Below are positions 5,316-27,514 of a stretch of DNA of 35,888 bases, piece by piece. The stretch comes from Chrysochromulina tobinii (taxonomy: Eukaryota): NCBI GenBank assembly GCA_001275005.1, contig JWZX01002573.1:1-35888 (forward strand), given 5' to 3'. Every line of letters begins with the position of its first letter. The stretch's first letter is position 1. The notes beneath the pieces were generated by a model. It was given only the letters and a program-made list of their open reading frames with translations. It made no database searches and had not been told where the DNA came from. The position numbers and the translations under genes are program-made.

Positions 5316-7490
5316 ATGGGCGACGAGCAGCACAACAAGTTCGTACTCAAGGAGCGCGAGAAGCTGCAGGCGCGCGAGAAGGCGCTCGAGAAGCGCGAGG
5401 CTGAGGCGGCGGCGGCATTCGAGTCCAACGCTCAGCTCCAGGCGGAGCTCAAGGCCAAGGCGGGCCAGCTCGAGCAGGCTGCAGTGCAGCTGCGCAAGCG
5501 CGACGAAGAGCGCGACGCACTGCGTCGCGAGAATGACGCCGCGCGGCGCGAGCTTGCAGCCGCGCAGGCCGAGGCGGCCAAGGCCAAGCAGGCTGCCGGC
5601 TCGGGCGCAGTCGCCAAGGCGGAGGCGGCGGCGGCGGCGCACCGTCTAGAGGGGGCACAGTACGAGAACTCACGGCTGCGAACGGAGGCGACGACGGCGA
5701 AGCATGATGCCGCCTCGGCGCGCAAGACGCTCGAGGAGTCGATCGAACGTCTTCGCGACACGGTGGCGGCACTGGCAGAGCAAGAGGCGGTGCTCCTCGC
5801 TCTGCAGCGGAATGCCAAGCAAGACGAGCAAGCGCTCGCGCAGGCGCGGGCGGAGCTGGCGGCGCAGCGCGCCCAGATGGAGCAGACGGCCTCCTCCGCC
5901 GAGTCGCTCCGCCACGTCGTCCAGCTCGCCCTGGCCAGGCTGATCCGTTTACTCCAGCAGCTACGGCAGCAGCGCGACGCGCTGGTGCAGACGCAGACCG
6001 ATCTGAGGCAGCTCGAGGAGCTGCGCTGCGCGGACGCGGATCGGATGGCGGAGCTGAGATTGCAGCTCGAGGACGAGCAGCGGAGGCGCGCCGCGGCGGC
6101 GCAGGAATCGTCCGCGCTCGAGGCGGCGCTCCAAAAGGAGATTGCGAAGCTCGCGGCGGCGAACGAGGTGAAGCGCGAGGTCATCGAGCGGCTGACCAAG
6201 ACGGCGCTCGAAGGCGAGCGCCACGTGGCCGAGACGCAGAGCCAGCTCGAGCAGTCGCAGAGCCAGCTCGAAGCTATGCAGGCCCAGTGCGGCGGCATGC
6301 GAGAGCAGCTCGTGGATCAGGCGACTCAGCTGGCGCGCGATGAGGAGCGCATCGCGCAGCTCGAAGCGGCGCTCGTCGAGCGCATGCGATGGATTGAATC
6401 GCTCGAGACGACGCAGACGATGCACCGCAAACGGATCGCGGAGCTCTATGAGCATCTACGTCTCTTCCTCTCGCTGAGCGGCGCCGAATGGCGAGCCGGC
6501 GTGGGCGCCGGCGTGGGCGGCGACGGCATGATGGAGGTGGCGGAGAGCTCTGCGGCGGCCGCCGCGAACGAGCTCGAGATCACGCTGATGCAGGCGGAGC
6601 TCGCAGGGCTGGGCGAGCGCGTCAAGGTCCTGTCAAGGACCCCTGATGACGACCTCTGAGGATGACCTCTGAGGATGACCTCTGATGATGACCTCTGATG
6701 ATGACCTCTGATGATGACCTCTGATTGGCTCCCGCATCAGGTCCTGACCAACGAGCGACAAGCTCTCCTCTCCAAGGTGCCGCCTTATGACCTGACCATC
6801 GAAGCGCCCGCGGCCTTCGCTCCGGGCGGCAGCGGCGGAGTGGGCGGGGGCGGCGGCGATGGCGGTGGCGGCGGGTGTTGCGGCGACGAGACCGCGATGA
6901 CGACCGGCGGCGAGCACGAGGGCAAAAGGAGTCCGAAGGTCAGGACGAAGGACGCTAAGCGCGCGGAGAAGGCACGTGCGGATGCGGATCAGGAGATCGA
7001 GAGCTTACGAGCCCGGGCCGTCCAGGCGGAGGCCCACGTGGCCGAGCTACAGCGGCAGCTACGCGCCAAGGCGAGCCGGCTACGCCAGCTCGGAGGTGGA
7101 GCTCATGCCGGAGGTGTCGCAGGCGAGGCGCCGTCGCTCAAGATAGCAGCCCCGTCGGCGGGGCGCGCGGGCGGCGGCGCGGGCGGCGATCGGGCAAGCG
7201 ATGCGGCAGGGGGCAGCGGCGGAGGCACAGCGGAGGAGGGGCGCGCTGTCGTGGGGCTGCAGCGCGAGCTCGAGGCGAAGAATGCCGAGATCGCCGAGAT
7301 GAAGACGCAACTCGCCGTGCTCAAGGATATGGTGCGCGCGCGCCAAGCGGACGCACGCACCATGGAGATGCAGAATGCGCGGCTGCGGCGCAAGGTGCAA
7401 GGAGGTGGAGGTGGAGGTGGAGGCAGCGGTGGTGGTCCCAACTCGCCTGCCCGGCCAACCAACGTCATGGAACAGCTGCCGAGCGAATGA
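5316..7490 (+). CDS. Long coiled-coil protein of unknown function, 2 exons (5316-6626, 6741-7490)
   Basis: A/E/Q/L/R-rich heptad sequence with Gly-rich linkers. ORFs 5316 and 6711 share a frame across a 114-nt GT-AG intron (ERVK|VLTNERQ). Confidence 0.8.
6627..6740 (+). repeat. Repeat-filled intron: ~7 x 13-nt GACCTCTGA(G/T)GAT
   Basis: AAG|GTCCTG...CCCGCATCAG|GTCCTG. Units run 6638-6728. Contains the in-frame stop at 6657-6659. Confidence 0.85.
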
Positions 7491-7859
7491 GTATCGTGCG
7501 CACTGTGGCCGTCCCGTGTTGCGCAGGCGAACCACACGATGACACGAACACTCGCGACTGAGTGCCCGACTCGGCGGTGCAGCCGCTGCGCGCGATACGC
7601 GATAGAGAGATCGCTGACGATGAGATGCTGATCTTCGACGCAACATGATGATTGCATGAAGCGATGAACGATGTATGTTGTATCAAGCGGGTGGAAGGGA
7701 GCGAAATTCGCAAAATCTATTGTTCAGTGGACACTGCTTTTTGAAAGCACACCGCGGGACATACACGCCGCAGCCTCGGGCGAGACCCGCCGGTGTCCCG
7801 CTGGTGCCTGGTCTCCCTGGTCGGGTCGGAATCGAGATGAGCCGCGACAAGCGCAGGGC

Positions 7860-8834
7860 TCAGGAGGCCTCCTGCCCCAGGCACGAGGCCTGCCCAATGC
7901 ACGACTTGGCCTCCTCCACCGGCCCCAGGTGCGAAGGTGGCCAGTAGACCACGGTGGCGTGCCCGATGATGTTCTTCATCGGCAAGAAGCCCCAGTAATG
8001 CGAGTCGAAGGAGTGGTTGCGGTTGTCGCCGAGTACGAAGACGGAGCCCGCGGGCACGGTCAGGGTGTCCAGGTCGTACTCCGCCAGCTCGTTCGTGTAC
8101 GGCTCGTTGAGCGTGTTGCCGTTGAGAATCAGCCTCCCGCCGCGCACCGCGACAGTGTCCCCGGGCACGGCGACCACGCGCTTGATGACGGCCTCGCCGT
8201 CGGGTTTACGAGCCGTCAGGTCCCAGAAGAGGGGCGGCGGGTCGAACACCACCACCTCGCCGCGCAGCGGCTGCCGGTACCATTTGGTCACCTTCTCGAC
8301 GGCGAGCTGGTCGTTCACGTCAAACGTGGGGTACATGCTGAGCGACGGGATGTAGCGCGGCTCGACGATCAGGAAGCGGATCGCGAGGAAGAAGGCAAAG
8401 GTCGGGATGAACTCGCGCGCGAAGTCAAAGGTCTCGCCCTCGCCACGCCGCAGCAGCGCCCACTCGTTCGCGAGCGACTGCGCCAACGTGCGCTGCTCCA
8501 CGATGTCTCCCTCTGGCGGCTGGAGCGGCGCCGGCGGCGGCGCGGCTGGGCTGACGCCTTCCGCCACGCCAAACTTGCGCAGAATCTGGTCGATGCGATT
8601 CGACGAGCCTCCGCTGCTGCTGCTGCCGCCGCCGCCGCTGCCGCCGCTGCTGCCGGTGCTGCTGCTGCCCCTCTCCTCGGTGAGGGTGAGGAGCGCCGAG
8701 CGCCTTCGCTGCAGCTGCTGCGGCTGAGAAGGCGCGCCGCATGATAGCAGGCTGCTGCGTGCGAGTCGTGTCGTACCGGCGAGCGACGACACCAGGGCCA
8801 ACGAGGGCAACAGGAGGCACAGCATTAGGGTCAT
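7860..8834 (-). CDS. lepB: Type I signal peptidase (S26), plastid/thylakoid processing peptidase-like, with bipartite presequence
   Basis: IRFLIVEPRYIPSLSMYPT (catalytic Ser), VIKRVVAVPGD (catalytic Lys), VFVLGDNRNHSFDSHYWG. N-terminal hydrophobic signal peptide followed by a Ser/Arg-rich transit-like region. Confidence 0.92.
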   Translation of the reverse strand: MTLMLCLLLPSLALVSSLAGTTRLARSSLLSCGAPSQPQQLQRRRSALLTLTEERGSSSTGSSGGSGGGGSSSSGGSSNRIDQILRKFGVAEGVSPAAPPPAPLQPPEGDIVEQRTLAQSLANEWALLRRGEGETFDFAREFIPTFAFFLAIRFLIVEPRYIPSLSMYPTFDVNDQLAVEKVTKWYRQPLRGEVVVFDPPPLFWDLTARKPDGEAVIKRVVAVPGDTVAVRGGRLILNGNTLNEPYTNELAEYDLDTLTVPAGSVFVLGDNRNHSFDSHYWGFLPMKNIIGHATVVYWPPSHLGPVEEAKSCIGQASCLGQEAS

Positions 8835-9169
8835 GAGGTCCACGAGCTCTCACCCCGCGGTGATGAAGGACTATTATAAATAGTGCGGATTTCTCCCCCG
8901 CGATTTGATGCATGGTCACCACGGGAAGCCCCATGTTTTGATCTCGCTACTTCTCGCCGAACTTGAAGGAAACGCAGTTACGCGCTGAGTGCAGTTCTGA
9001 GGACTTGATTGCTCATTAGGTGCGCAGCGAAGCCCATGGGCAACGCGGTCTGCCTAGGTCGCGGCTTTTAGTGCCGCCTCCCTAGGGAATAGGGCGGGCG
9101 AAGCGCGCCTGAGCCAGGCGTGTGCCTGTAGGAGGGAGCGACCGCCCCAGCCGGCATCCAGAAAGTGCG

Positions 9170-10620
9170 ATGCTGGCGACTAGCTCACTCGCCGATGATG
9201 CCGCTTTCACGCTGGTCAGCGGCAGCGCAGGCAGGAAGGTGGATGCGACAGAGATGGGCAAGGTCTTCGTCGGTGGCCTGTCACGCGAGACAACGACCGA
9301 TGGCCTGCGCCTGTACTTTGAGCGCTTCGGAGAAATATGCGACTGCGTCGTCATGAAGGATCGCTCAACGGGTGCCCCCCGTGGCTTTGGCTTCGTCACT
9401 TACACTTCGCAAACAGTGGCCGACCGCGTGGTGCACCACCGGCATGTCATCGACGGCAAGGAGGTAGAGGCGAAGCCGGCGGTGCCTCGCGAATCGGAGA
9501 CGCTCGCCACGCAGCGGTCCGTCCTGCCGCCGCCGCTGCAGCCCGGCATGGGGCGTACAATGCCCGGCTTCGCGCCGCCGAACCTCGCGTCGCAAAACGG
9601 TGGGGCGCAGGGGACGACACCATCGTTTGGTGGCGGCCAGGGCAGCTTCGGCGCGCCGCCACAGCGCACCGGCGCGCCCCCGAACGGCGGCGGCGGCGGC
9701 TTGCTAGGCGGTTCGGGTGGCGGGCGCGGTGGGGGGCGCGGCAGCGGCGCCATGCACGGCTCGTCTCAGTTCGGCGGCTCGGGTGGCGGCGCCAATGCTG
9801 AGTTCCCGACGAACAAGATCTTCGTGGGCGGCCTCTCGCACGACACGAGCGAGAACGACTTCGTCGGCTACTTTTCGCTCTTCGGGCCTGTCATCGACTG
9901 CGTCATCATGTGCGACCCGCACACGCGCAAGCCACGTGGCTTTGGCTTCATCACCTTTGACAACACGGCGGCTGTGGATCGTGCGTGCGTCAACAAGTTC
10001 CACGAGCTCAACGGCAAGTTTGTCGAGGTCAAGCGCGCCATCCCACAGGAGCGCATGAACGAGGCTGAGGGTGTCGGCGACGGCATGAGCCTGAGCGGCT
10101 TCGCAGTGGGAAAGGGGAGCGGCGGCCGCGGCCGTGGCGGACCGATGGGCGGATTCCCAAGCGGTGGCGGGGTGCCGATGGGCGCCTCGCCGACGGGTGC
10201 GGCCTTCTCCAACGGCGGGCGTGGCGGCGGCTTGCGCGCCGTCGACTACTCGCAGAGTGGCCTCGACGCAGCTCTCTCAACGGCCAATTCGGTCCTCGCC
10301 TCCCTGGCGGAGCCTCCTCAGGACGTGCCTCACCGTTCCGAGACACAGGTACCCTCGAGCCTCCTCTCGGCCTTCTCGAACCCGAGCAACTTCTCGTCGG
10401 CCACCGAGTCCCTTCGCAGCGGCTCGCGGGCTGGCTACGGCGCCATCGAGCAGGCCTTCGCGGGCGCCGACGATCCGAGCACGCAACGGCCCTCGGTGGC
10501 GGCGGGAGTGGGCGGCGCCGCCCAACACGGCGTCCTTTCGGGGGTCGCGCAGGAGCAGATGAGCGCGCTGCAAGCCGACCAGCAGCGCCAGCTGGATCAG
10601 TACCAGATGCAGCAGCAGCT

Positions 10621-10659
<39 letters not shown>

Positions 10660-11089
10660 CTTCCAGTTCCAGCAGCAGCTCCTCAAGCAGCACAAGCAGT
10701 CGCAGGCGCAGCTCATGCAGTTGCAGCACCAGCACGAGCAGCAGGCGTTGCTGCAGCAGCAGGCGCAGCAGCTCCAGATCCTCCAGCAGGCGCAGCTGCA
10801 GCAGCAGCAGCTGATGCAGCGCAACCTGCTCGAAGGCCAAGGGGACGGCGACGACACCCTGAGCGCCGCCGATGCCACGATGCAGCGTCTTTCGTCCCTC
10901 GGAATAGACGACGGGCTCCCCCTGCCTGCGTCCGCCGCGTCCTCGCTGCAGTCCACCACGCTGCCGTCGGCCTCGCTGCCGGTGGCGCTTCCAGCGGCAC
11001 AGCTGCCGGGGGCACAACTCCCGGGCGCGCAGCTACCAATCAACTCGCTGCCCTCGAGTGGAGCGCTCCTTCCGGGCTTCTTCCATTAG
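9170..11089 (+). CDS. Two-RRM RNA-binding protein (hnRNP A/B/D, Musashi/DAZAP1-like) with Gly/RGG-rich and poly-Q regions
   Basis: RRM1 KVFVGGLS...PRGFGFVTY and RRM2 KIFVGGLS...PRGFGFITF...GKFVEVKRAIP. Appears intronless. Start could be 9170 or 9253. Confidence 0.9.
10580..10820 (+). repeat. Coding CAG/poly-Gln tract
   Basis: Dense CAG runs in frame with the RRM protein. Confidence 0.85.
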
Positions 11090-12827
11090 ACACCGACGGA
11101 GTCTCCCCCCCCCCGCGCGCCTGGGCACGCGGGGGCAGTGCAAGAACGAGGCAGGGGCAGGTGGGGCAGGGCACAGCGGCAGGGCACAGCGGCAAGGCAC
11201 AGCCCAGGCGCAGTTGACTGGGCCACTCTCGGCCAATAGTAGTTCATCGGCGGAGAGCAGCAGAGAGAAGAAGCACAGTCCAGGTTTATCGAGCACGTCC
11301 TTCCCAGAAGGGGGAGGCGCGGCTGTCAGGGCACGAGGGAGTACAAGGGCACATACACAGGGACAAGATCTTGTAGCATCCGGGAACAGGAGGCGAGACG
11401 GGCATCCTGTCTCGTTGCACCTTAGATTCAGACGCCAGCTTCGGTGCTGCTGAGGCCGAGTGCCGCCAACAGTGCCGCGCAACAGGAGATAGGGGGGGGC
11501 TCCCGTCGGCAGTGACCGCGACGACGCGAGTGAGTTGACATGGAGTTAGGGTGGGGGGAGCGCCGCGACCGAACATTCGCGATGATGATCATCATGCATT
11601 GCTTAGTCCGCCCGAGGCTCAGCTAAGTGGTGTCAGCGCATAGCGTATGCGGCGAGCGGCTGTGTGGCTCGATTGCCCCGCGGTTAGCCGACTTGTCGTC
11701 CGCGGAGCCGGAGGGAGGTATCCATAGGCGGTGGCGCGCACCGCCGCACTTGTTTGCGCGCTACCTTCGTCGCGGTAACGTACAAGTGTATCGGTAATAG
11801 TGTATCATGGTAAGTCACACCAGGTCCGATAGTGCAGTGTAGTTGCCGGGGGGGCGCGCGTGTGCATCGGGGAGATGCATCGGGGTTACTTTCGCACAAT
11901 CACAAGTATGTTTCTGATCGGTCCGGAGATCGCCCCACTCGCCACTGGCCACTGCATTCCCAGCGGCAGCGCCCCCGCCGGAGCCGCCGTTCCCAGATCC
12001 CACGGCAGGCACTGTTCCGCGCTGCACTGTAGACTGTTCACCCACGACCCAGTTCGGACTTCGGTCCCGCACGGCGCCACGGGGCGCACGGGCGCATGTT
12101 AGGCGCATGAAGATGTAGATGATGCGATCCCACCCGCACCGCCGTTACCCCGGTGGGGACTGGGGTTCAGCCTTAACCCCCCGCGGCCCCCGGCGCCCCG
12201 CCCCCGGGCCCCCGGCCCCGCGCGTGCGGCCGCGTGCCGCGCGAATGGAGTGCCCGGCGCGATCGCCGGAATCCTGGAATGGCGCGAATGCAGTCGCACC
12301 CGCGGTCTACGGTCTTCGTTAATGTTGTATATATTGATAACTGAACACCGTCGACTCGGAACACCGAAGACCGTGCTAGATGTACGGTACCGACCGACGG
12401 ACCGCAATGATCAATGTAGAATGATGTCAACAGCTCAAAAGCCTCAACGACTGGCACAACTGCTTCATCCGATCGCATGACGCGAGCGGACACGTGACCG
12501 CGTGCACGCGGTAGAACGGCAAGCAAGGACTGTATGTGTATCCATACGATCGGTAAAGTAGCGGGTAGATCAGCAATCGCACCGGTTGACCCTCTCATAC
12601 ATCTTAGGCTCTGGACAGCGGAAGGCGGATGGTCGTACATGTAGGCCACGCTTCGTTCGGCCTGGGCCCTCCGCTTGGCCGCCTAGGTAGCATGGTAGCA
12701 TGCGTGCGTCTCTCCTCTCTTGGCTGCTGGCTGCCTATCAAGCGGACGCCAAGTGCAGCTGCCCAGGTACCCTAAGGTGCCCGGTACGGCGCCACGGCGC
12801 AGGCGCCCAAAGGTGCCCAAGTCTCCT

Positions 12828-15459
12828 TCACGCACGCATCGTCGCGGGGGGCGAGAGCTCGAGCGAGAGCAGGCCCGCCGACGCAGACGCCGCCAAGCCG
12901 CCGCTGCTACCACTCCCTCCAAGTCGCGCTTTGCTCGACTGCGGCCTCTGGCGCTGCAGCTGATGCTTGACAAGATTCTGCTCCCCGGGGGTGAGTGGCC
13001 CGGCGGAACGGTGTGCTTGGAAGGCATACCGGCGAGGGTCCACCTGCGGCGCCTCGGTGGCACCTGATGAGGGACGCAATTGAGAGTCATCAGCGGTCAT
13101 CAGCGGCACTCCCCACCTGAGGCGCTTCGGCAGCACCTGTCAAGAAGACCGTTGTAGGCAGCACCCCCTTCCCCATCGGCGGGAATTCCTTGTCGCGATG
13201 GCTGTAACGAACCCCGGCGGAGGCAGGCCGACGAAGATTCGATCGCGCTCCAGGGATCGCCTCGATGGTGAAGGGTGCGCTTGAAGGCGCCGAGTTGAGC
13301 TCCTCGCGTGTGGGGGTGGCCCATGCGCCCGTGACGGCGCCTCCGTCCGCCCCTCCATTCGCATGGCCAGCGCCGCCACCAACGATGGCCGCGGGATTCG
13401 TCGCGCGAGTGGTCTCGGCGGCGGCGTGAGCGGAGGTCTCCATCAGGCGCATGATGGCCTGCTGTAGGTCTCCCTGGACAGTCGATTGGGTCTTCTCCTC
13501 CAAATCTCCTAATTGGCGGCCCACCTGCATTCCGATGCCATCAACAGCCATCAACAGCCATCAACAGCCATCAACAGCCATCAACAGCCATCAACAGCCA
13601 TCAACAGCCATCAACAGCCATCAATACCATACGAATCCATCGGAGGCAATCAGAGAGCAATCACCTCGACCGCAAAGTTGGCTAGGATGGACTCGCAGAA
13701 AGCTCGATCTGCCTTCGTGGCGAGCAGCCAGCGCTCAGCCTTGGTCTCGAGCGCGCGCTCGACCTTCTCGGCGTCTGCCTTCGTCTCTTTGAGGGTGATC
13801 ACCTGCGCCCGCAATCCGAGGTCATCAGAGGCAATCCGAGGGGCAATTCGTCGCAATCAGTGGCCATCAGAGGCGCAATCCGTGGCCATCAGAGGCAATC
13901 CGAGGGGCAATTCGTCGCAATCAGTGGCCATCAGAGGCGCAATCCGTGGCCATCAGAGGCAATCCGAGGGGCAATTCGTCGCAATCGGTGGCCATCAGAG
14001 GCGCAATCAGAGGTCATCAGAGGCAATCCGAGGGGCAATTCGTCGCAATCAGTGGCCATCAGAGGCGCAATCAGAGGTCATCAGTGGCAATCCGAGGGGC
14101 AATTCGTCGCAATCAGAGGTCTCATTGCGAGTAAACACCTGCCCGTGTAGCTCGGAGAGCGCCGCCTGCACCTCGCCCTTCATGTCATCGAGCATCGCCT
14201 TGTCCACGCCTTGCGCCCCTTGCCCGCGCTCTACCTCAGCTTTTCGGAGCAGAGCACGCAGGTGCGTCTGTAAAGCGAGCACCTGCCCCTGCGTCGCCTG
14301 CTGGGTAGCCTGGAGGGTCTCGACGAGCTCGGCTGACGCCCCCGCGCCCCCGCCCAGCTGCGGGGCGAGCAGAGGTACTCAGAGGCACTCAGCGGCACGC
14401 AGTGGCACTCAGAGGCACTCAGTGGCACTCAGCGGCACTCGAGAGGCACTCGAGAGGCACTCCGAGCCAATCAGTGGCGCCGCCGACCATTTGCTGAGCC
14501 AGAACGCTCGTACGCAGCTCGCTCAAGGCGCCTGTGAGCGCGCCAAATTCAAACTTGGTAGTGAAGTCGGTTTCGAGTTTGGTGCGCAGCTCGCTGAGCT
14601 CGCGCATCTGACTCATCTCCGCGTGCGAGGCTCGCAGCTCGGCGGCTGCTGATTGGAGCTCTCGCATCTGGGCGAGGATCCTGTGCTCGAGATCTCTGAG
14701 CTGGGCGGCCGACGCCCCCGCGCTGCTCTGGAGCACGAGCCCGTGGAGCAGCGAGGTGCGACCGACGAGACGCGAGGGGCGCCTTCGTTCATCACTCGTG
14801 GGAGAGCCGCTGATGCTGGCGGCAGCGGCAGCTGCTGATGAAGACGCCGCGGCAGCTTTGGTGGCCAGGGCGGCCGTTCCCTCTGCTGCTGCGGCTGCTG
14901 CTGCGGCTGCGGCTGCAGTCGGATACCCGGAGCCGCTGCTGCTGCTGCTGTCGGAAAAGTCGAGCGGTCGGTAGCCGTCTGGCATGGTCGCGTGGCCCAC
15001 GGGCTTACCATCCTTGCCGACGGACGGCGATGCGCTGACAGCAGCGGGCGGCAGCTTACCGCCGGTCGGCTCGCACACCATCTCGATGAGCTGGCCTACC
15101 TCCTCGTCCATGCGGTCGATGAGCGCTTGGTGCCGCTCGGCGGCATCGCCAAGCGCCGCAATCTCGGCGAGAAGTGCCTCGTCGACCTTACCCTTCTTGT
15201 CGCCCATCATGGCGACGATCGCCGACGATGCGTTCGATCCCCATCTGCTGCTCAGCTTCTTCTCAAGCTCAGCATTGCGCGCCTCTAGAGCAGCCAAACG
15301 GGCCTCGAGGGCCTCCGCCCGTGCGTCACTGGCCTCCACACGCTCGACGAGCGCGCGCGTCTCCTCCACGTGTACCTCGCGTGCCAGTGCACGGATGAAC
15401 TCGCGCTGCGCATCGATGTAGGTGGATCGTGGCGATGCAGATGAAGGGTCGGACGCCAT
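12828..15459 (-). CDS. Coiled-coil protein with a DUF4795/QRICH2-like segment, 5 exons (15459-14488, 14357-14139, 13802-13665, 13524-13137, 13063-12828)
   Basis: Five ORF pieces join in frame through four GT-AG introns: VLAQQM|LGGGAG...ELHGQ|VITLKETKADAEKVERALETKAERWLLATKADRAFCESILANFAVE|VGRQLG...VFLTG|ATEAPQVDPRR. The DUF4795 resemblance is by eye only. Start could be 15498. Confidence 0.75.
13064..13136 (-). repeat. 73-nt intron with CGCTGATGAC units, bracketed by a 27-nt degenerate direct repeat
   Basis: ACAG|GTGCTG...GCCGCTGATGACCGCTGATGAC...CCCTCATCAG|GTGCC. An alternative register (13044-13116) has the same length and gives the same frame. Confidence 0.75.
13525..13664 (-). repeat. 140-nt intron containing 8 x 10-nt TGGCTGTTGA
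   Basis: GAG|GTGATTGC...GGAATGCAG|GTG. Plus strand reads tcaacagcca x8 at 13541-13620. Confidence 0.85.
13803..14138 (-). repeat. 336-nt intron containing ~5 copies of a 64-nt higher-order repeat
   Basis: CAG|GTGTTT...GGCGCAG|GTG. The anchor gcaatccgagggg recurs at 13831, 13895, 13959, 14023 and 14087. Confidence 0.85.
14358..14487 (-). repeat. 130-nt intron containing ~9 x 10-11-nt GAGTGCC(T/A/G)CT
   Basis: ATG|GTCGGC...GCCCCGCAG|CTG. A phase-0 join restores the frame. Confidence 0.8.
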
Positions 15460-15655
15460 TGACGGTTGCGTTAGTTTGGCCCCCTTACGCACCAACATGC
15501 CCGCGGACAACTCAACACGACAACACAAAGCCGAACTTCGCACGTCAATTCATCCCCCTGTCAAAATCACCATTCTGAGACTGTTGCCAATTTGGGATAA
15601 CTTTTGTCAGCGTCTTATCGCGAGAGATCGCGTGAGGCTTACTGGCACACGCGGG

Positions 15656-17026
15656 ATGTCGCCGCCACGCGACGTTTCGGCCGGCCGACCGAAGATCTAC
15701 CTGCCTACAGGCCCGGCGCGCTACTCGGGCCTCGAGGTGGACACGCCGCTCCTTTTCCTCTTCTACCACGTCGAAAAGACGGCTGGTTCGGCCGTCATGA
15801 AGTGGCTCCATAAGCTGGTGAGTGCGCACGACAGGGATCTGGGCAACCTTACGCCGCGGCTCACCTCGCTCTACGACTTCACTCACACGAGCTGCCTGCT
15901 CTCGCAACACGGCGACCTGTTCCCCGGCTATGCCAAGCTGTGGGACGAACGCCGGTGCTCCGTTCCGCACCCGCCGCCCTGGCAGCGATCAGCGACTGCC
16001 GCCGAGTTCCATGCCTATACGAAGAAGCGCTACTGGGAAGACTTTGTGCCCGTGCTGCCCCAGCTGCGCGCTAAGTACGCGGCGGCGAATGGCACGGTGA
16101 TCACCGTCACGCTGCTGCGTGAACCCATCAGCCACATTATGTCGGCGTACAAGATGTGGCCGCCGTCGCAGCGGTGCAAGGCGGGCGGCAGTTGCGACGC
16201 GTCGTTCTGCAGCGCGGTCGATGCAGCGCGGCCGAAGCGAGGTGCCCGATGCAGCGCGGTCCAGCCCTGTTCGCCTGCCGACTGCCCAACCGCGGGCAAG
16301 CATGCCCTTCCGCTGCCCTGGTGGCTTCCACGCGCCATCGGGCTCCAGGCAGGCTCACTCACTCTCGACAGCTGGCCGAATAAGCACATTGGCTTCCACA
16401 ACCTGCGGGGCTGCCAGGTGACTGCCGCTGATCGCCCGTGAGATTTCCATTTCATCTGCCACTGAGTGAGGCTTGCGCGTTCCGCTGGGTTCATCATCGG
16501 GGTTCGTCAGGTCCTCGAGCTCAGCCAGCAACGGTTGCAGACCTTCGACGTGGTGGGCGTGACCGACTGCCTCGAAGCCTTGCTTGCTCGATTGTGCACC
16601 TTCTTCAATTGGCCTTGCGCAGCGGACCGTGAACGGACGGAGCTTGCCATCTCCCAAGCGCTCCACATGAAGCCGCACGGGGTCAAGCCGGGCGGACTGA
16701 TGGCTCGCGAAGGGCTCGCCTTCTTTGAGGCCGCTCGTCAGAATGCGAGCGTGCAGCGCGATGTCGCTGTCGCCGCGCGATGCGATCGGCAGCTCTACGA
16801 GTACGCCATCCGGCGCGTTGGATTACCGTCGCTTGCCCCCCCCGAGATCAAGGTCGATCGCGCCTTGTGCGAGCGCGCGCCCTTTCTGGGCTTGAATGGG
16901 AAAGGGCTCCTTGAGCAAAGCCACTCGGGCGCGCTCCTCCCGTACCCAATATCGATCAACCAACAGGCTAGATTCTTCACAGACGTTCGATACCTTAAAT
17001 CGGCCCTGGCGGGTCGTTTGGTTTGA
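15656..17026 (+). CDS. PAPS-dependent sulfotransferase-like protein, 2 exons (15656-16417, 16511-17026)
   Basis: 5'-PSB-like LFYHVEKTAGSAV, 3'-PB-like TLLREPISHIMSAY, then FDVVGVTD and D.QLYEYA motifs typical of carbohydrate sulfotransferase families. Start codon uncertain. Confidence 0.75.
16418..16510 (+). other. 93-nt GT-AG intron, a degenerate member of the CTGA-repeat intron family
   Basis: CAG|GTGACTGCCGCTGATC...TGCCACTGAGTG...GTTCGTCAG|GTC. Removes the in-frame TGA at 16439-16441. Confidence 0.75.
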
Positions 17027-17764
17027 GAACTTTTGAGGCGTTTACACGATTGAGTTCTCACGGAGAGGTGTCGTCCGTCGCGGCACCGCAGTCGCGCGAT
17101 ACGCGACGGCCGCCCGGCCGGGCGGATCGGGATCGGATGGTCTTCTTTGTATGCTTCACACACTTAGGGATGTTTAGATAGAACAGCCCCGAGAGCTGGC
17201 CGAAGGCCGAGCTCTGACATCGCGGCGCGGTCCGGTGCGGTGACATCGACGCGACGTGGCAAGTTGCGCGCGGCGCGCCCTCCGGCGTTGCGGCTTGCGC
17301 GCCTTGCGGGATCATGTGCGGGATCGACCGAGTACGATTTCCTATTTTAAACATGCTGTTAGATGTGCCCTGTAGCGTAGTATACAGCCCAAGAGTACCG
17401 TGCCCCTATCCCTCTCCGCACACACAGTTCGCGCGCCCCAAGCACCGCCTCTAAAGACGGGAACACGGAACTCCAGACTGCAGATACCCCGCACCGGGCG
17501 CCCCCTGAGGTCCCCCCTTTCCGCACACACGACCAAACGAGGCCGAAAGGGTCACGATGTTCCAAGAGCCACGGCTGCTCCACACTGAGTCCGCTGGCTG
17601 GCTGTAGACTGATCTAAGTTGCGTCGTGTCGGAGCACATCCCCCGCGCTCAATGCTCCTGACGCACATGCTGCTACGCACATGCTGCCAACCTCCATGGC
17701 CTCAGACGGTTTGCATCGTTCCCCTTTCTGCGCGCGTTGCGCCGTCGTTGGCACCTCCGCCGCC

Positions 17765-19693: not shown

Positions 19694-19920
19694 CTCCAAT
19701 GCTCGGCTCGCTCGCAGATTCACGCGAGCTCGCCGCAGAGCACACTTTTACACTTTGCGTTCACACGTTTCCGCAGATTCTCATGATGCGCGATACGCTT
19801 TTGCGCAAAACTTTGGGAGCGTCTTCTTTTCGTCGAGAGAATGCGGAAAAGCTGCGCTGTGGGAAAGCACGGCCGGCCGAAAATTGAGTCAACGCGAGCG
19901 ATCGGTCGCCCCCTTCGATT

Positions 19921-21896
19921 ATGGCTGACTATGACCGTCCGCCACCTACTCCCGCGCTAAAGCGGACGTCCAAGCCTGTGGCGCGGCCGCTACAATCGGC
20001 GACGGGATCACCGCCGCCAGGCAAGAGCTTGCTCGCCGCCTCGCCGCCGCAGGGCAAGAGCCTGCTCGCCAACTCGCCGCGGCCGCAGGCTGCGAAAGAA
20101 AACGCACCCTTGGCCAACTCGCAAAAATTCAACCCTGCATCCGCGCCGCCAGCAGGCAAGAGCCTCCTCGCCGAGTCACCGCGCAACGTGGCGCCGCCTC
20201 CGCCGCCTGACCCGAGCCTGCATCAGGATGCGAAGCCCATGGATCGCGAGGGGCTTTGCTGGGCCCTGAAGCAGCTGCGCGGCCGGCAGATTCCTTCGGC
20301 ACAGGTAGCCGAGATGGCGCTCGCTGTGCAGGCCGCCGACCCCGAAGGACCCAAGGCACCGACTGTCCTCGCGCAGCGTCGCACGTACATCGAGGACTGG
20401 GCTGCGAATCATCAGGACGAGATCGCGAACGCCACTCCGCCGTCGCCACCGCCTGCCCAGCAGCGCCAACAGTACCAGCAGCAGCAGCACTACCAGAAGG
20501 ATCAGCCGACGGGCGATGACGGCGAGGAGGAGGAGGAGGAGAACGACGACGACGACGACGAGTGGGAGCGGCAGCAGCAGCAAAAGGTTCAGCAGCGGCA
20601 GCAGCAAATGATGCAGCAGCGGCAGCAGCAGCAGCAGCAGCCTTCGGCGCCATCTGCGGGCGGCTCGTCCCAATCGACCACGGCGCTCCTGCACGAGGTG
20701 CGACGAATCTGGACGGCAGGTGCGACCGAGCAGCAGCTGCACGCGCTCGCCGCGGCGGTGGCGGTCAGCCACGGGTTCAATCTGCCGGCGGGAGGCGCGA
20801 CGGTTCACGCGACGTTCATCATCGACTTCCATAATTGGGCGCGCTACGCACTCAGCCCAGTGCCGCCGCCCATCCCTCGGCCTGGCGAGAAGGCAGCGCC
20901 GCCCGCTGCCGCCGCGCCCGCACTGAGCGCCCAGAAGAGTGCGGAGCTTGAGGAGGGGCAGCTGCAGCTGCAGCAGCAGATGAAGGTCTTGCAGCAGCAG
21001 ATGCAGCAGCAGCTGCAGCAGCAGCAGGCGGCTCATCAGCGCCAGATCCAGCAGATGGCCCAGCAACTGCAGGAGCAGGTGGAGCAGGTGCAGCGCCAGC
21101 AGCAGCAGGCGCAGCAGCAGCAGGCACAGCAGCAGGCGCAGCAGCGCGCGCAGATGCAGCAGCAGATGCAGCAGCAGCAACAGCAGCAGCAACAGCAGCA
21201 ACAGCAGATGCAGATGCAGCAGCAGCAGCGCATGAACATGCAGCAGCAGCAGCAACGGCAGCAGCAGCAGCAGCAGCAGTATGAGCCGCCCTCGCCTCCA
21301 CCACCGAACGACTTTGGTGGCGACGTGGGAGGCGGCGGCTTCGGAGGAGGTGGATCGAGCAGTCGCTCGGGCGGCGGCAACTCCGCGCGCGAGCGGCAGC
21401 GCATAGCAGACGGCGGCAGCGTATTGCAGACGCCTCGCGACACCCGCCACTGCCTGCAGATGCTCGAGAACGTGATGAATGGTGACCCTGAGACGCACGT
21501 GCCCCTCACAGTGCTCAACGACCTGACCCGCCACGTGGCCTTGATGAGCAAGCGGAAGGCACCTCAACTGGCCGTGCAGAAGCGCATCTTCGTCAAGACG
21601 TACTATGAGGAGCTCCGGCGGGATATCGGCGGCGGGCGGCGGGCGGCGGGCGGGCGGGCGGCGGCGGCGCGAAGCTGTCCGTCGAGTCAGTCTATCAGGA
21701 GGTGAACAATCGCATCGAGCAGGCGAACCGCTCGGTGAAATTGCAAGGCGTACTGACCGATGTACACGTGGACAGCCTCGCCGAGAAGATCTGCCAGGTG
21801 CTCGGGAGGGAGATGCCCGTGCAGAAGCGCGAGCGGCGCCACCTCGTCGAGAGCTGGCACAAGCACATGAAACAGCATGTAAGCGGGCGCGGCTAG
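19921..21896 (+). CDS. Poly-Q/Pro-rich protein with four ~55-aa helical modules; apparent frameshift at 21628-21668
   Basis: ORF 19921-21705 shifts inside a GGC/GGGC run into the frame reading AKLSVESVYQEVNNRIEQ...SGRG* (stop 21896). Confidence 0.7.
20958..21280 (+). repeat. Coding CAG/poly-Gln tract
   Basis: About 100 codons dominated by CAG. Confidence 0.85.
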
Positions 21897-22833
21897 TGGC
21901 GCGAAGCCGTCGTCGAGGCGAGGTGAGTCGCTCCGAGGCTTCGAGCTTCGTTTCGGGGAGGCTGACTGAAGATCAGGCTGTAGCCTACACTCAGGCAGTT
22001 CGCTGTGGACGGCCGGCCCTTGCCGCCTGCCGTGCGGCGCGCCGGCGCGACCTGCGTGATGCACCCCGCAAAGCTCACATGAGACATGTGACCGCGACAT
22101 TTAGTATCGAACGTGAGAGCATGACGCGCGGATCCCGAATGCGGATTGGTTTTCCGAGTCTTCGGGGCCCGACCCGGAGACTGAGGGTGAGGCGGAGTCA
22201 GTCGCCGCGCACCGCGGAGAATGTTCGAAATTAACGTTACACCTCTGCCGGCGCTGTCCGACCTGCGCGAGTCGCGACCGCCGATCACCTGCCGGCCGCG
22301 GTCCCGGTCCGCCACCGCCGCACGTGGACCGTGCCCACGTGGCCACGCGCCAGCACGCCGCGAAGCGTAACGCTAACGGACGCCGGAGCCGCGAGCGCCG
22401 AGCCACCACGGGGTGTGTGGGACAACATGATTTCTGAGATGCAGTAGCGCTTCTCGAAATCAAAGTGTTCCATGCTAACTTGACATGCTTACTCTCGACG
22501 AGCCCGCAGGCACGAACCGTTAATAAACGGGCCATGCCCCGTGCGCATGTGTGGCCGGCCGGCCGTTTACGGTCGTCGAAACCACCGAGATGGCCGCGCG
22601 TGTGGATGCACACCTCAGACGCACACAACATGAATGGGATGCTCACCTGACCCGCGTCCTCTCGTTCCGGTGGTCCTCTCCTCCAACGGCACGCTCCTCC
22701 ACCTCGCCTTGTCCGCTGCGAGGCACGCCGCTCAACCTCTCTCGGCTAATCATCTCATCGCTCACTCCTCGGCTTCTGCTGCGCCTGCTGCTGCTCTGGG
22801 TCGTCGTATCACTCTGAGGCGTTCACGTCACGC

Positions 22834-23986
22834 TTACTTGAAGTACATGAAGCCGTCCTCCTCCTTCTGCACCGAGACGGTCGTCTTGAGGCAGATCCAA
22901 AGGTCGCGCATGTAGCCCAAGTAGGTCGAGCCGAGCACCGGCTTGGGCATCACGGCCTTGTAGTACTTGCCAAGGTGAGCCTTGACGTACGGGGTGGCGG
23001 CCTGTGCGCCATAGTAGGGCATGTCGGAGAAGATGTGGTGGCACACGTGCGACGAGACGATGTAGTGCGTCAGGTAGTCGCCGACGGGGCCCATGGAGCG
23101 ATCAATGGTCGAGAGGGCGCCGCGGAGCCACGTCCACTGCTCGTCCTCGAAGTGAGGCACGTCCTTGTGCGTGTGCTGGAGCAGCGTGATGATGGCGAGG
23201 TAAAAGTTGGCCTCCATCTGCGGGATGAGGTACGAGCGGCACACGGCCCAGAAGCCGAAGACATACACGCCGTAGGCGATCGCCGCGCCCGGCCAGCAGC
23301 ATGCCGACGTTCGAGGCGCGCACGTAGTTCTTGTCCTTCTTCTTGAAGAGAGACTTCGCGTTCGGGTCGAAGTGCGACTGGCCGAGGTTCTGGCGCGCGC
23401 CCGTGTTGTTGTTGATGAGGTACGCCCACCAGCCCACCGTCGCGATGATCACGAGGCGCTGGATGATGCCCAGCGGCGTCTTAGCGAACTTGACTGATTT
23501 CTTCTCTGGGTTGGCCGTCGAGGGCACCCACGTCTCGCCCATCGTCATGTGGTTGGTGTAGTGGTGGTGCTTGGCGTGGGTGATGGCCCACGAGAAGTAG
23601 GGCGCGAGCAGCGCCGAGTGCACCACGAAGCCCACGGTGTCGTTGACGACGCGCGAGTCGGTGAAGCCGCCATGGCCGCACTCATGACCGATGACCCACA
23701 GGCCGGTGAAGATCAGGCCCTGGACCCACCAGTAGGCGAGCCAAGCGACCGGCACCGCGTACGCAGGCAGGTTGTCGTTGCACCAGTGCACCGCGGCGTA
23801 GGCCATGCCCGCCATCACCAGATCCCAGCACAGCGCACCGAGCGAGTGCGTGTATGAGCGGACGAAGTACTCCGCTGGGATGCAGTCGCGGAGGGTCTTC
23901 TTGGTGATAGCCTCGTACGGCTGCGGGATGGTCTCAGCCAGGTAGGAGCGCTTCTCGGCCACGGACGCGGAGCCACCCTTGCCCAT
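22834..23986 (-). CDS. FAD2: FAD2-like (delta-12/omega-6 family) membrane fatty acid desaturase; 1-nt frameshift at ~23289
   Basis: MGKGG start, His boxes HECGH, HAKHH and HVCHH, plus PYFSW, SHFDP, ITLLQHTH and WTWLRGALSTIDR. Removing one C from plus-strand ccc 23288-23290 fuses both ORFs (MLLAGAAIAYGVYVFG). Confidence 0.9.
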
Positions 23987-24173
23987 GTTGGATTTAGGAT
24001 GGATCCAGGGTCCGCTTCGGAGGTCGCCGCAAAAGATTCGCTCTCGCGTTTCAGATTTTTCGCTGCATCCCTCTCGACAAATCGGTACAGTTGTAACTGG
24101 GCGGATGCGTCTTGCGTGCGCTGCGACAGCTCGTCGGCATCACATCCTCTCACCCCAAGTATCTTGCCTGTCC

Positions 24174-26369
24174 CTAAAATTTTACGTATCCGCCGCCTCG
24201 TTCACCCTCTTCTCGACCACTCGACGTCATCGCACGGTCCGTACGCGCAGATGGTGATGGTGGTCCAGGCGGTGGTGTCACCTGCACAAAGTTGCCTCCC
24301 GGCAGCGCCATGGGCCACCAGCGAAGCGCCGAGGTGACATTGGCGGCAGTGAGGCCGATGCGCCCCGTGGTCGGGGGAATGTCGATGGCCATAAAGACGT
24401 AGTCCTTGACGTAGAACTCGACCATGTCACGACGGTAGAGTAGGCGGATGGGCACCCGCTCACCCGGCGCTCCGAGGGTGAGATCCCGTGTCCAGCGCTC
24501 TGTGACGCCGACGCCCGGGACAGCGCTCGGCTGGTAGGGCTGCGGCTGTACGGCACCCCACGCAACGCTCGCGTTCATCGTCCTCATCGGCAGCTGGAGA
24601 TTGCAATCGTTATTCGCGAAGCGAAGGCCGAGCTGCAGCTGACGCGAGTGCGCCACTGCCAGGCCATCGGCGCCGCCGCAGATAGGTGGTGACTCGCCAG
24701 TGAAGACGTCGTACGAATAGTTATTGAGCGCATCGCTCGTCCACACGTCCGCCACTCTGGAGCCGTTGACCGCGTCGAGGAGCGTCAGCGTCACCGTCGA
24801 GCCTTTCTTCTCCGGCGCTTGCGGACCGCACCCGTAGCCAGCGACGTACTGGAAGCACACGTGCACGGAGGCGAGGTAATGGCCTTGAGAGTCTAGTGGG
24901 TGGGCAAGCTTGGCGACGCTCGTCTGCCCTGGGCCGCCGCTACGGATGTCGGAGCCGCCGAGGGCCGCATCCCTCGAAGGCATGCGACTCGCGCCGTCGT
25001 CAAAGAGCCAATCGGTGGTGGGGAGCGCGACCGCAGAGGGCGAGTAGGGGATGGGCGATTGCGGCAGAAAGTCGCCGATGGCTACCTCTTCTCCGCCCGG
25101 CGTGAGCACAATCGCAAGTGGCGCCAGATCACCGCTCAGCTCGAGCACGAACCCAGGCCAGTCAGGCTCGTGGGCTGTAGGGATTGTGACCACCGCCTCG
25201 AGCACCACTCCCTTTGAGCGCTCCTCCATAGTCAGGTTCTTGTTGAGGTAGGGCAACTTCTGAACGACCGGGTCGAGAGTGGGGGTAGGCTGCAGCTCAG
25301 TGTCCTTGAGCTGCTCGTTGCCCGACCAGTAGGTAAGGCGTAGGGTACCTTCGTCGTCCATCTCGACGCCCTTGTAAGGCGCAATGTACCTGATGAGGGC
25401 CCCACTCAGAGGTCATCAGAGGGGTCATCAGATTTCAATCAAGGCCCATCAGACTGCAATCGAGGGCGGCAGTTACGCGTTGTGAGTGCCCAAGTTCGTC
25501 CACGACTGGTGCGTGACGAGCAACTCATTCTTCAGCCCGCGGAAGAAGCGCAGGAAATAGCACGAGCCGTTGAGCAGGTTCACGTTCTTGGGCGCTCTCC
25601 ACCACGGACCGTACGCCGTCGGCGCCGAGTACGTGAGCATCGTACGCGGCCAGCCATAGCCGAGCATCGCAAACCAAGCGCCGCCGGCCTTGCCCGAGGC
25701 ATATGGAATCCACTCGACGGCCCCGATCTCGGCCCCGATGGGTTGGGGGAGCATCGTCGGCGAGGGCAGCGCCTCCCAATGATAGCCGTCCTGCGTGATG
25801 CCGAAGCCAAACGTGCCCTTCCCGCCGATGGGGCTGGCAGTCCAGTACCCGAGGCGCGGGTAGCCGTCGCGCTCGCCTGGCTGCAGCTGCGGCACCGAGT
25901 AAATGGTGTCCCAGCGACCCGGGTCGGTATAATAGGTGGTGTTGATGTAAAAGTAGAAGTCAAATTGTTCCGGGCGCGTCCAATTCAAAAGGTTGAACGA
26001 CTGCGCGAAAGTAATCCTCTGTGTGTTGTTTGGCAGATACTCGCTGTAGTTGATGAGATAACGGCCGGTCTTGTCAAAGTCGGCGGCCCTCCATACGGAC
26101 GACGTGCCCTGCCAATACTTGTTCTGCTCCCAGGCCGGCCCATGCCACACGTAGCCATGGTCGGTCCAGTTGGACGCACCATTTGGAGATGTGGCCACTC
26201 CGAAGCCCTCGCCGGGAGACTCCTCAGTGATCAGGTAATACGCATAGTAAGTGCCGTTCTCGACAAACGCCCACGTGTCCCACTGCTTGGTGACTTCGTC
26301 GCTCTTGAACATAAGCCCGTCGGCTGAGGCGGCGAGTAGCAGGAAGAGGTTTCTGAACCTCCATGACAT
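24174..26369 (-). CDS. Secreted five-bladed beta-propeller glycoside hydrolase-like protein (clan GH-J, GH32/GH68-like), 2 exons (26369-25477, 25389-24174)
   Basis: Signal peptide MSWRFRNLFLLLAASADG, QWDTW...YYAYYL first blade, Asp-box-like ATSPNG..W, AQSFNLLNW and ITQDGYHW, YSAPTAYGPW, and GH32 C-terminal-like IRLLYRRDMVEFYVKD. 3' end uncertain (possible extra donor near 24281). Confidence 0.7.
25390..25476 (-). repeat. 87-nt intron with CTGATGAC/CTCTGA units
   Basis: GC|GTAACTGCCGC...TCTGATGACCCCTCTGATGACCTCTGAGTGGGGCCCTCATCAG|GTAC. A phase-2 join gives GTHNA-YIAPYKG. Confidence 0.85.
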
Positions 26370-27255: not shown

Positions 27256-27438
27256 AAAGGCCGCAATGACCAATGAGGCCTACGAAGTACGAACGCTTTA
27301 TAAAGCGTGCAGTAGTGCAGTCGTATGGCGTGGCTAGCTGGCTACGTAGCTGGATGGGGCCCTGTATGGGATCTGCTGTTGGCAACACCTTTCGGTGAAT
27401 ATTATCATGTGGAGATCGCAGAGACTCTGATCACTGAT

Positions 27439-27514
27439 GATACTGCACTCGCTCGCACACGGCCCCCTAAAGTCGCAGAATCGGATACTGCACTCTCACA
27501 CACGGCCTAAGTCG
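27439..27514. repeat. Imperfect direct repeat (45-nt spacing) near convergent gene ends
   Basis: gatactgcactcgctcgcacacggccccctaaagtcg and gatactgcactctcacacacggcctaagtcg. Confidence 0.7.

Follow-up and report, generated by a model that had tools for sequence, protein, structure and literature searches.

The window analysed here, a stretch of 35,888 nt from Chrysochromulina tobinii, contains seven introns that carry variants of a short repeat, which we number i1 to i7, and the ordinary introns of the UAP56 gene, which carry u-numbers. The repeat introns lie in four unrelated host genes, for which Pfam returned nothing above cut-off; they range from 73 to 336 nt and total 973 nt. The genes, the introns and one further candidate are as follows.

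5316-7490: coiled-coil gene, host of i1
6627..6740, plus strand: i1, 114 nt, phase 0, with the 13-nt unit GACCTCTGATGAT and the end CCCGCATCAG
8977..9019, plus strand: candidate eighth member, absent from the initial annotation, 43 nt, with three units within GT...TCATTAG|GT, upstream of an RRM gene
12828-15459: host gene of i3 to i6
13064..13136, minus strand: i3, 73 nt, phase 1, with two CGCTGATGAC units followed by the family end ATTGCGTCCCTCATCAG
13525..13664, minus strand: i4, 140 nt, phase 0, with a CTCTGATTGC unit followed by 8.8 copies of the 10-nt TGTTGATGGC
13803..14138, minus strand: i5, 336 nt, phase 0, with a higher-order 32/64-nt array of 24 units
14358..14487, minus strand: i6, 130 nt, phase 0, with a 10-nt array of the CTCTGAGTGC type and no AG|GT repeat
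15656-17026: unknown gene, host of i2
16418..16510, plus strand: i2, 93 nt, phase 0, degenerate, with two units and no tandem array
24174-26369: GH32-like glycosidase gene ("gene 4"), host of i7
25390..25476, minus strand: i7, 87 nt, phase 2, with six mixed units, the start GTAACTGCCGC and the end CCCTCATCAG

All seven introns start with GT and end with AG at the coordinates assigned to them in the initial annotation of this sequence. Motif counts over the window show that the 10-nt unit CWCTGATKRC is almost confined to them and faces the sense direction. The pattern CNCTGAKKRC matches 27 times, with 25 matches inside six of the seven introns, all 25 in the sense orientation; i2 has none, and the only matches elsewhere are at 8983 (plus strand) and 34841 (minus strand). 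For the core CTGA[GT] we counted 37 sense and 4 antisense copies over the 973 nt that the seven introns comprise, 0 and 0 in eight comparison introns totalling 849 nt (seven from UAP56 and one at ~4130, the boundary of the latter being misplaced and u6 one base too long in this count), and 70 and 58 in the remaining 34,915 nt. These counts bear out the annotated rule that the orientation of the unit follows transcription. The description of the unit as ~10 nt long fits three arrays with a period of 10, but not i1 (13), i5 (32/64) or i2, which has no array. Two weak clusters lie outside the seven (8983-9012 and 27425-27441), no more than the 0-4 obtained per shuffle.

The ends of the introns are also shared, exactly as annotated: i1, i3 and i7 end in CCC(G/T)CATCAG, i2, i4 and i7 begin with GTRAYTGC (extended to GTRACTGCCGC in i2 and i7), and i1 and i6 have CTGATTGGCTC in common. 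Over the last 10 nt before the AG, i1, i3, i7 and L005, a contig from outside the window described below, match one another at 7-9 of 10 positions; in the same comparison among the UAP56 introns, the best pair reaches 8 and the next 6. Each shared end is present only in subsets of the family, the CATCAG 3' end being absent from i4, i5 and i6, and a multiple alignment of the introns revealed no end-to-end homology, with interiors that do not align. The membership of i2 rests on its 5' end GTGACTGCCGC, in common with i7, with a match of 8/10 after the GT. The candidate at 8977..9019 scored best of 4,610 windows against i1, i3, i6 and i7, by a margin of just 34 vs 32; it may be a 5' UTR intron or a relic.

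Homologous proteins back six of the seven, all but i2, as GT-AG introns, and the size of an RNA contig adds to this for i3 to i6. The homolog P0082 (58%) is colinear over the i1 junction, and homologs are likewise colinear over i4 (FAVE|VGRQ at the junction) and i5, and roughly so over i6, where the junction falls within a Gly-rich linker. At i3, they are colinear with the donor at 13136 only; the alternative donor at 13116 was ruled out by a frameshift. At i7, 40 homologous proteins align over the intron site, and in the homologous contigs L003 and L004 precisely 25390..25476 is missing. A metagenome scan with gene 4 yielded four loci, two of which (L001 and L002) are identical to the window over the gene and so not independent of it, the other two being homologous contigs of transcript size. 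For i2, the sole support for splicing is that its removal leaves one open frame. In each case, then, removal of a GT...AG segment restores a conserved frame, as in U2-type introns, by the open frame only for i2.

The RNA contig in question, X15 record 18, is 1,504 nt long, which is 1,474 nt for four exons joined at the sites given above plus 30 nt, the overlap expected from a 31-mer assembly; its listed piece ends at 13059, matching the junction predicted for i3. Among the 15 rows listed out of 63, there was no RNA joint for any of the seven introns, and X13 record 10 is unspliced over 12335 to 13148, reflecting either retention or DNA. Our data support placing i1 to i7 in a single family of spliceosomal introns, whose units run in the sense orientation and whose ends recur among its members; i2 is a weak member.

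The unit itself contains the U2 branch-site consensus: CTRAY lies within CWCTGATKRC, and the adenine of the last YTRAY is 17-27 nt from the 3' end in five of the seven introns, a position at which the repeat could act as the branch site. Every intron also carries stop codons in frame with its host, between 2 and 6 in each of the seven: each unit contains TGA, and none of the periods (10, 13, 32) is divisible by three. A retained copy would thus introduce stops and may be removed by nonsense-mediated decay.

The junctions were said to be enriched for AG|GT. The counts stand, with AG|GT at both junctions in 5/7 repeat introns vs 1/7 UAP56 introns (u6, 2025-2109), but the enrichment is borderline by Fisher's exact test (p=0.10 two-sided, 0.051 one-sided); the donors of i6 and i7 lack AG|GT. 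Direct repeats at the junctions measure 8, 5, 7, 5, 7, 1 and 3 nt in i1 to i7, that of i1 being AG|GTCCTG, and 3, 1, 1, 5, 0, 6 and 3 nt in the UAP56 introns (Mann-Whitney one-sided p=0.046). With lengths of 1-8 nt, including a single nucleotide at i6, there is no target-site duplication of fixed length across the seven introns, as would mark MITE-like introners, nor did we find a consistent terminal inverted repeat in the family; a 6-nt TGATGA/TCATCA terminal pairing occurs in L005 only. The CATCAG end is able to pair with internal units in i1, i3 and i7, and RNA folding, run without a shuffle control, gave hairpins of this kind and no common structure.

The family extends beyond the window. 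In run X7, 17 DNA contigs align over 13060-13080, the 3' end of i3, and then diverge behind it; the shared end is 17 nt long and non-repetitive. One DNA contig has the family 3' end directly followed by more units (14092 to 13060). Summed depth reaches 2,941 in the bin 14008-14674 vs ~45 in unique bins, a figure that is not a copy number. L005, a stray contig of 66% GC in a GTDB MAG, has the arrangement AG|GT...(CTCTGATGAC)n...CCCTCATCAG|GT inside a radical-SAM gene, and the motif occurs on this contig only within that MAG. Like introners, then, the members reside in non-paralogous genes, the four unrelated hosts plus that of L005. Motif scans of viral contigs returned 4, 2, 2 and 10 stretches, with no family-type intron in the nearby sequence examined; these are phage or giant-virus sequences, some with 10-bp arrays, and we treated them as unrelated.

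Occupancy of the sites in relatives was judged from a protein collection in which a gene call terminates where an intron brings a stop, also when the contig is as long as 12 kb (P0100, P0081, P0001). A word-indexed search with a 46-aa exon found nothing and an HMMER search found 20 proteins; P0010 and P0017, which are repeat matches, were left out of the alignment, and P0001, P0018 and P0021 out of the tree. In P0089, the nearest relative of gene 4 (77% identical, contig of 16.5 kb), the protein continues across the i7 site, and P0022, P0024 and P0025 (41%, on 27-37-kb contigs) read through i3 to i6. Read-through in relatives on long contigs thus covers i3 to i7, but the i4 site is interrupted in two other relatives, P0006 and P0015. 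The tree needs three changes at this site, and its resolution is too weak to separate parallel gain from an old gain followed by losses. At i1, we detected no presence/absence polymorphism, as all 12 of the alleles that reach the junction carry the intron. Judged from protein calls and contig sizes, these patterns suggest that most positions may be lineage-specific gains. The proposal that the repeats generate introns gains from this and from the spread of the family beyond the window; the shared i4 site and the lack of polymorphism at i1 speak against it.

Alleles at the same site differ in their units. At i1 there are two versions of the array, reading VLPMTSDDDL* in 9/12 alleles and VLSRTPDDDL* in 3/12, and P0001 and P0021 have a different 3' array at the i5 site; these differences are derived from translations, and misassembly of repeats could contribute to them. 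What looked like a copy of the target at the beginning of i1 was dismissed: in the commoner allele this stretch reads as unit sequence, which makes it a unit that has diverged. Because alleles at one site already differ, expansion and reshuffling after insertion can explain the diversity of units more simply than the fresh assembly of each insertion from a motif vocabulary, which the initial annotation had put forward.

How might such introns have arisen? The reading that we favor, with about even confidence, is that of a mobile intron resembling introners, with an interior made of a minisatellite. It would enter sites similar to AG|GT in the sense orientation, and its internal unit would then expand, contract and recombine. 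The ancestral element would have opened with a sequence resembling GTRAYTGC(CGC) and closed with ATTGCGTCCCTCATCAG, with a small number of CWCTGATKRC units in between. Its insertion would either duplicate a short stretch of variable length or use AG|GT sites already present, which would make an RNA-templated or break-repair copying route more likely than a cut-and-paste transposase. Only sense copies would persist in genes, because CTRAY is present in the unit and the two ends bring the GT and the AG, and slippage, unequal exchange and gene conversion would afterwards erase similarity over the whole length. A different reading, which we consider doubtful, is that active intron-making with no fixed element has left the strand-biased 10-11-bp repeats in haptophyte introns as its trace; each new site would receive a variable number of branch-site units, written between a GT and an AG.

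The repeat may instead make no introns at all, older ordinary introns having been colonised and homogenised by a minisatellite favored in the sense direction for the branch site it gives. The CTRAY in the unit, with its last copy at branch-point distance in 5/7, would fit this idea, as would the site of i4 in common with two relatives and the fixation of i1; the high repeat content reported for E. huxleyi introns (10.1101/283549) also accords with it. Such colonisation would have to be patchy, since the seven UAP56 introns of the same window have no units, and it predicts unique ends, whereas the family sequence continues right to the splice sites and 17 other contigs carry the same 3' end of 17 nt. 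It also sits poorly with the read-through of i7 in the closest relative of gene 4 and of i3 to i6 in the relatives on long contigs, and we give it a limited chance of being right. The variety of the introns, with lengths of 73-336 nt, different mixes of units and junction repeats of 1-8 nt, could alternatively mean that no fixed element exists and that each one is written de novo where the DNA breaks, by an enzyme copying units from a short template, either telomerase-like or in slippage-prone repair synthesis. Several 5' ends look like a target GT with a unit joined to it (GTGATTGC, GTGATGAC), the 3' CATCAG equals CTGATG in reverse complement, which would fit extension of both broken ends by the same motif, and the DNA contig that passes directly from the family 3' end into more units points the same way. 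A non-repetitive 17-nt end in many copies, however, points to a fixed template that was copied, and the differences among same-site alleles imply that diversity arises after insertion; we therefore think this explanation unlikely. Tandem duplication of exon segments containing AG|GT, with the repeat entering during or afterwards, draws on the first 24 nt of i3, which match the downstream exon at 20/24 positions. But a long duplication is seen in i3 alone, the target copy at i1 is a diverged unit, and the donors of i6 and i7 have no AG|GT, so that this origin seems improbable.

Introners are already known from haptophytes: the two largest surveys (Gozashti et al. 2022, 2025) list 653 copies in E. 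huxleyi, 827 in a Chrysochromulina MAG, 230 in a Prymnesium MAG and 58 in a Phaeocystis MAG, as well as introners in Pavlovales, and state that repeat-rich families are discarded (PMC9860276, PMC12130899). They also include a Chrysochromulina example with a 4-bp TSD and no TIR, and an E. huxleyi family with 10-bp terminal direct repeats. Compared with these by description, i1 to i7 are similarly short GT-AG introns in unrelated genes with similarity that reaches the splice sites, but they differ in that they show no whole-length similarity, range from 73 to 336 nt, are built internally from a minisatellite and have junction repeats of varying size. They lack the high similarity of whole introns up to both splice boundaries by which the 2022 survey recognised introners, and its exclusion of repeats would remove them, since tandem arrays dominate. 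In the parts of the supplements that were searched, CTGATGAC had no match. Given that introners have been reported in many haptophytes, calling these introns a distinct system was an overstatement.

Other known cases resemble the family in part. New introns in Daphnia are said to carry short direct repeats and to arise by double-strand-break repair, and the Rogers model reportedly explains intron gain by tandem genomic duplication. The variable short junction repeats and the exon-like start of i3 recall both, but inserts in those cases are mutually unrelated, unlike i1 to i7 with their one unit and common ends. Read et al. 2013 reportedly described strand-biased 10-11-bp intronic tandem repeats in Emiliania huxleyi, suggesting a role in intron processing, and is not known to have linked them to intron gain or to shared terminal motifs. 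Our introns are likewise from a haptophyte, intronic, strand-biased and of period ~10, a likeness in general features. Our literature search, outside of which Read et al. 2013 and the introner family sequences lay, found no paper tying haptophyte intronic minisatellites to intron gain. The motif description was absent from the available portions of PMC12480563, PMC8379373, PMC11347835, PMC4580454, PMC4028052, PMC6387519, PMC3887541 and 10.1101/2022.10.25.513657. Within the literature searched, then, we did not find the link between introners and intronic 10-11-bp repeats.

The origin of new spliceosomal introns is a long-standing question. Under the reading without a fixed element, the family would represent a mode of intron gain that introner surveys remove by design. 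Should haptophytes be gaining repeat-built introns at new sites, these surveys would miss part of the intron gain in an important group of algae, and the unexplained strand-biased repeats reported from Emiliania introns would acquire both an origin, as a mobile intron, and a function, as tandem branch sites with built-in stops.

The seven introns begin with GT and end with AG, and their shared motifs are as the initial annotation described them.

Repeat-bearing introns, with array period where one was found
6627-6740, plus strand: i1, in a coiled-coil gene; period 13
16418-16510, plus strand: i2, in gene 15656-17026
13064-13136, minus strand: i3, in gene 12828-15459; period 10
13525-13664, minus strand: i4, same gene; period 10
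13803-14138, minus strand: i5, same gene; period 32/64
14358-14487, minus strand: i6, same gene; period 10
25390-25476, minus strand: i7, in a GH32-like glycosidase gene (gene 4)

The consensus CNCTGAKKRC has 27 matches in the window, 25 of them inside six of these introns; all 25 are in the sense orientation, bearing out the claim that the unit keeps one orientation relative to transcription. For the shorter CTGA[GT], the seven introns (973 nt) hold 37 sense and 4 antisense copies, eight comparison introns (849 nt) hold none, and the remaining 34,915 nt of the window hold 70/58. A profile scan of the window finds unit clusters in i1, i3, i4, i5, i6, and i7 and none in i2; two weak clusters outside the seven introns fall within the range of 0-4 that 20 shuffles give. 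The repeat-intron pattern is genuine and far exceeds what chance would give. AG/GT at both junctions was also proposed to set these introns apart; the counts hold (five of seven versus one of the seven ordinary UAP56 introns), but the difference is borderline (two-sided p = 0.10, one-sided p = 0.051). Compared with the UAP56 introns, this family has longer junction repeats (8, 5, 7, 5, 7, 1, 3 versus 3, 1, 1, 5, 0, 6, 3; p = 0.046).

Three further features lie in the window. Upstream of an RRM gene, 8977-9019 (plus strand) holds three units with a GT start and a TCATTAG/GT end, resembling i7, and is a possible eighth family member in a 5' UTR. A GGCG-type repeat at 21627-21669 (plus strand), just short of where the long ORF 19888-21705 terminates, is possibly a different kind of repeat-filled intron. 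At 22834-24139 (minus strand), a putative fatty-acid-desaturase-like gene lies in two overlapping minus-strand ORFs, with an apparent frameshift near 23290.

The stretch is contained in 17 public runs, 6 of them RNA. Among the 15 of 63 joints listed, none falls at the seven introns; RNA joints confirm at least five of the seven UAP56 introns. Support for splicing of the family, good but indirect, comes from contigs and homologues. RNA record 18 of run X15 is 1,504 nt long, 30 nt more than the four exons joined at the i3-i6 sites (1,474 nt), an excess that equals the overlap a 31-mer assembly should leave at a branch. Its listed piece, 12335-13059, ends where it does consistent with four bases common to both sides of the i3 junction. 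Record 10 of run X13, from either a retained intron or DNA, crosses i3 unspliced. Against homologues, the 650-aa product of the spliced exons shows no gap at i5, i4, and i3 and aligns roughly at i6; an alternative i3 donor causes a frameshift and was rejected. The 87 nt of i7 are absent from contigs L003 and L004, and alignments of 40 homologous proteins span the site. The homologue P0082 is colinear across the i1 junction; for the putative intron i2, removal restores the reading frame. The first 24 nt of i3 (13113-13136, minus strand) copy the downstream exon (13040-13063) at 20 of 24 positions, and of the four mismatches, three would leave the amino acid unchanged when read in the exon frame (not significant).

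The DNA is eukaryotic and GC-rich (57-69% GC per kb); homologues of its genes labelled Prymnesium sp. (31% identity) and Prymnesium parvum (62% identity) place it in a haptophyte. We judged intron absence in relatives from proteins, not DNA. Unspliced gene calls are frequent in this collection: P0001, P0021, and 12 of 15 members of the P0081 cluster enter the intron and terminate there, including one whose contig measures 12.4 kb. Given this behaviour, a full-length call on a long contig implies that the intron is absent. P0089 (703 aa, encoded on a 16.5-kb contig and 77% identical to gene 4) continues across i7; P0022, P0024, and P0025 (41%, 27-37 kb contigs) and P0012, P0034, and P0036 (37%, 9-12 kb contigs) read through i3-i6. 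Absence would accordingly hold for i3-i7 in these long-contig relatives. Against it, a 38-aa insert in P0015 falls precisely on the i4 site, where P0006 diverges. P0002 and P0013 cross the i4 site and break elsewhere; in P0002, P0006, P0013, and P0015, which come from other haptophytes, gene 12828-15459 is apparently interrupted at different sites, and one of the four bears a repeat-like tail. At i1, all 12 alleles that reach the junction carry the intron. On a 17-row tree with only two well-supported branches, the i4 label requires three changes.

Copies also occur beyond the window. In the DNA run X7, 17 contigs, some of which may be alleles, share 13060-13080 (the end ATTGCGTCCCTCATCAG and the GT after it) with the window and differ from it behind that stretch; the alignment favours contigs with GT after the end, so this count is no test of AG/GT preference. 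Joints in X7 connect the i3-type 3' end to unit arrays, with other letters in between. One X7 contig (joint 14092 to 13060) carries the family 3' end followed immediately by GT and further units; it represents an insertion in tandem, a nested one, or an error of assembly. Scanning GTDB genomes produced a single match, L005 (66% GC), a eukaryote-like contig within a bacterial MAG. Here a radical-SAM gene, presumably CofG-like, is broken by AG/GT...(CTCTGATGAC)n...CCCTCATCAG/GT. In the 3' flank (L005:1098-1440) the protein does not appear to continue, and another array, also in sense, begins at the contig end; L005 may be a chimera or contain neighbouring introns. Among i1, i3, i7, and L005, 7-9 of the ten bases before the AG match. 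An AT-rich giant-virus contig (L012:2940-3046) has a 10-nt GCTGAGTGYY array whose likeness to the i6 unit is probably coincidence. Several phage contigs (L015-L024, near position 2001) carry direct repeats with a 10-bp period that include CTGAT, most of them in sequence that appears to be non-coding; these may serve as arrays for protein binding and seem to have no relation to the introns.

CTRAY is the U2 branch-site consensus, and the unit CTCTGAT contains it. The last CTRAY-type adenine lies 17-27 nt from the 3' end in five of the seven introns, and all seven contain in-frame stops; branch-site content and stops together explain the sense orientation with no need for insertion itself to be strand-specific. 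That many copies share a fixed, non-repetitive 3' end points to a copied element; a cut-and-paste transposase fits poorly with the variable junction repeats and the absence of consistent inverted repeats. We give about an even chance to an introner-like element that would be copied to new sites, its interior then turning over as a minisatellite.

Older introns colonised by the repeat, which the interrupted i4 site favours and the read-through at i3-i7 opposes, are a distinctly less probable source. The initial annotation held that each insertion is a different build of a short motif vocabulary. This claim, and with it de novo synthesis of each intron, which we consider unlikely, is weakened by differences between alleles: translated into the intron, i1 reads VLPMTSDDDL then stop in 9 of 12 alleles and VLSRTPDDDL then stop in 3 of 12, as in the window, and at i5 P0001 and P0021 reach the exon via MATDGHGLRAQ, a peptide not encoded at the end of the window's array. 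Either arrays change at fixed sites or they are misassembled. An origin by exon duplication is the least probable of these.

Introners and intronic repeats are each already known in haptophytes; Read and colleagues reportedly described intronic repeats of 10-11 bp with a strand bias in E. huxleyi in 2013. Two further sources give high intronic repeat content (10.1101/283549) and frequent intron retention as well as GC donors (PMC4028052) for this species. The whole-length-similarity and low-complexity criteria of Gozashti et al. (2022; PMC9860276) exclude our family, which would therefore work like an introner without being filed as one. Our literature search found no paper connecting haptophyte intronic minisatellites with intron gain, and both this combination and the unit's identity as a branch site appear to be undescribed. 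The different break sites in P0002, P0006, P0013, and P0015 suggest that introns turn over fast across the haptophyte group.
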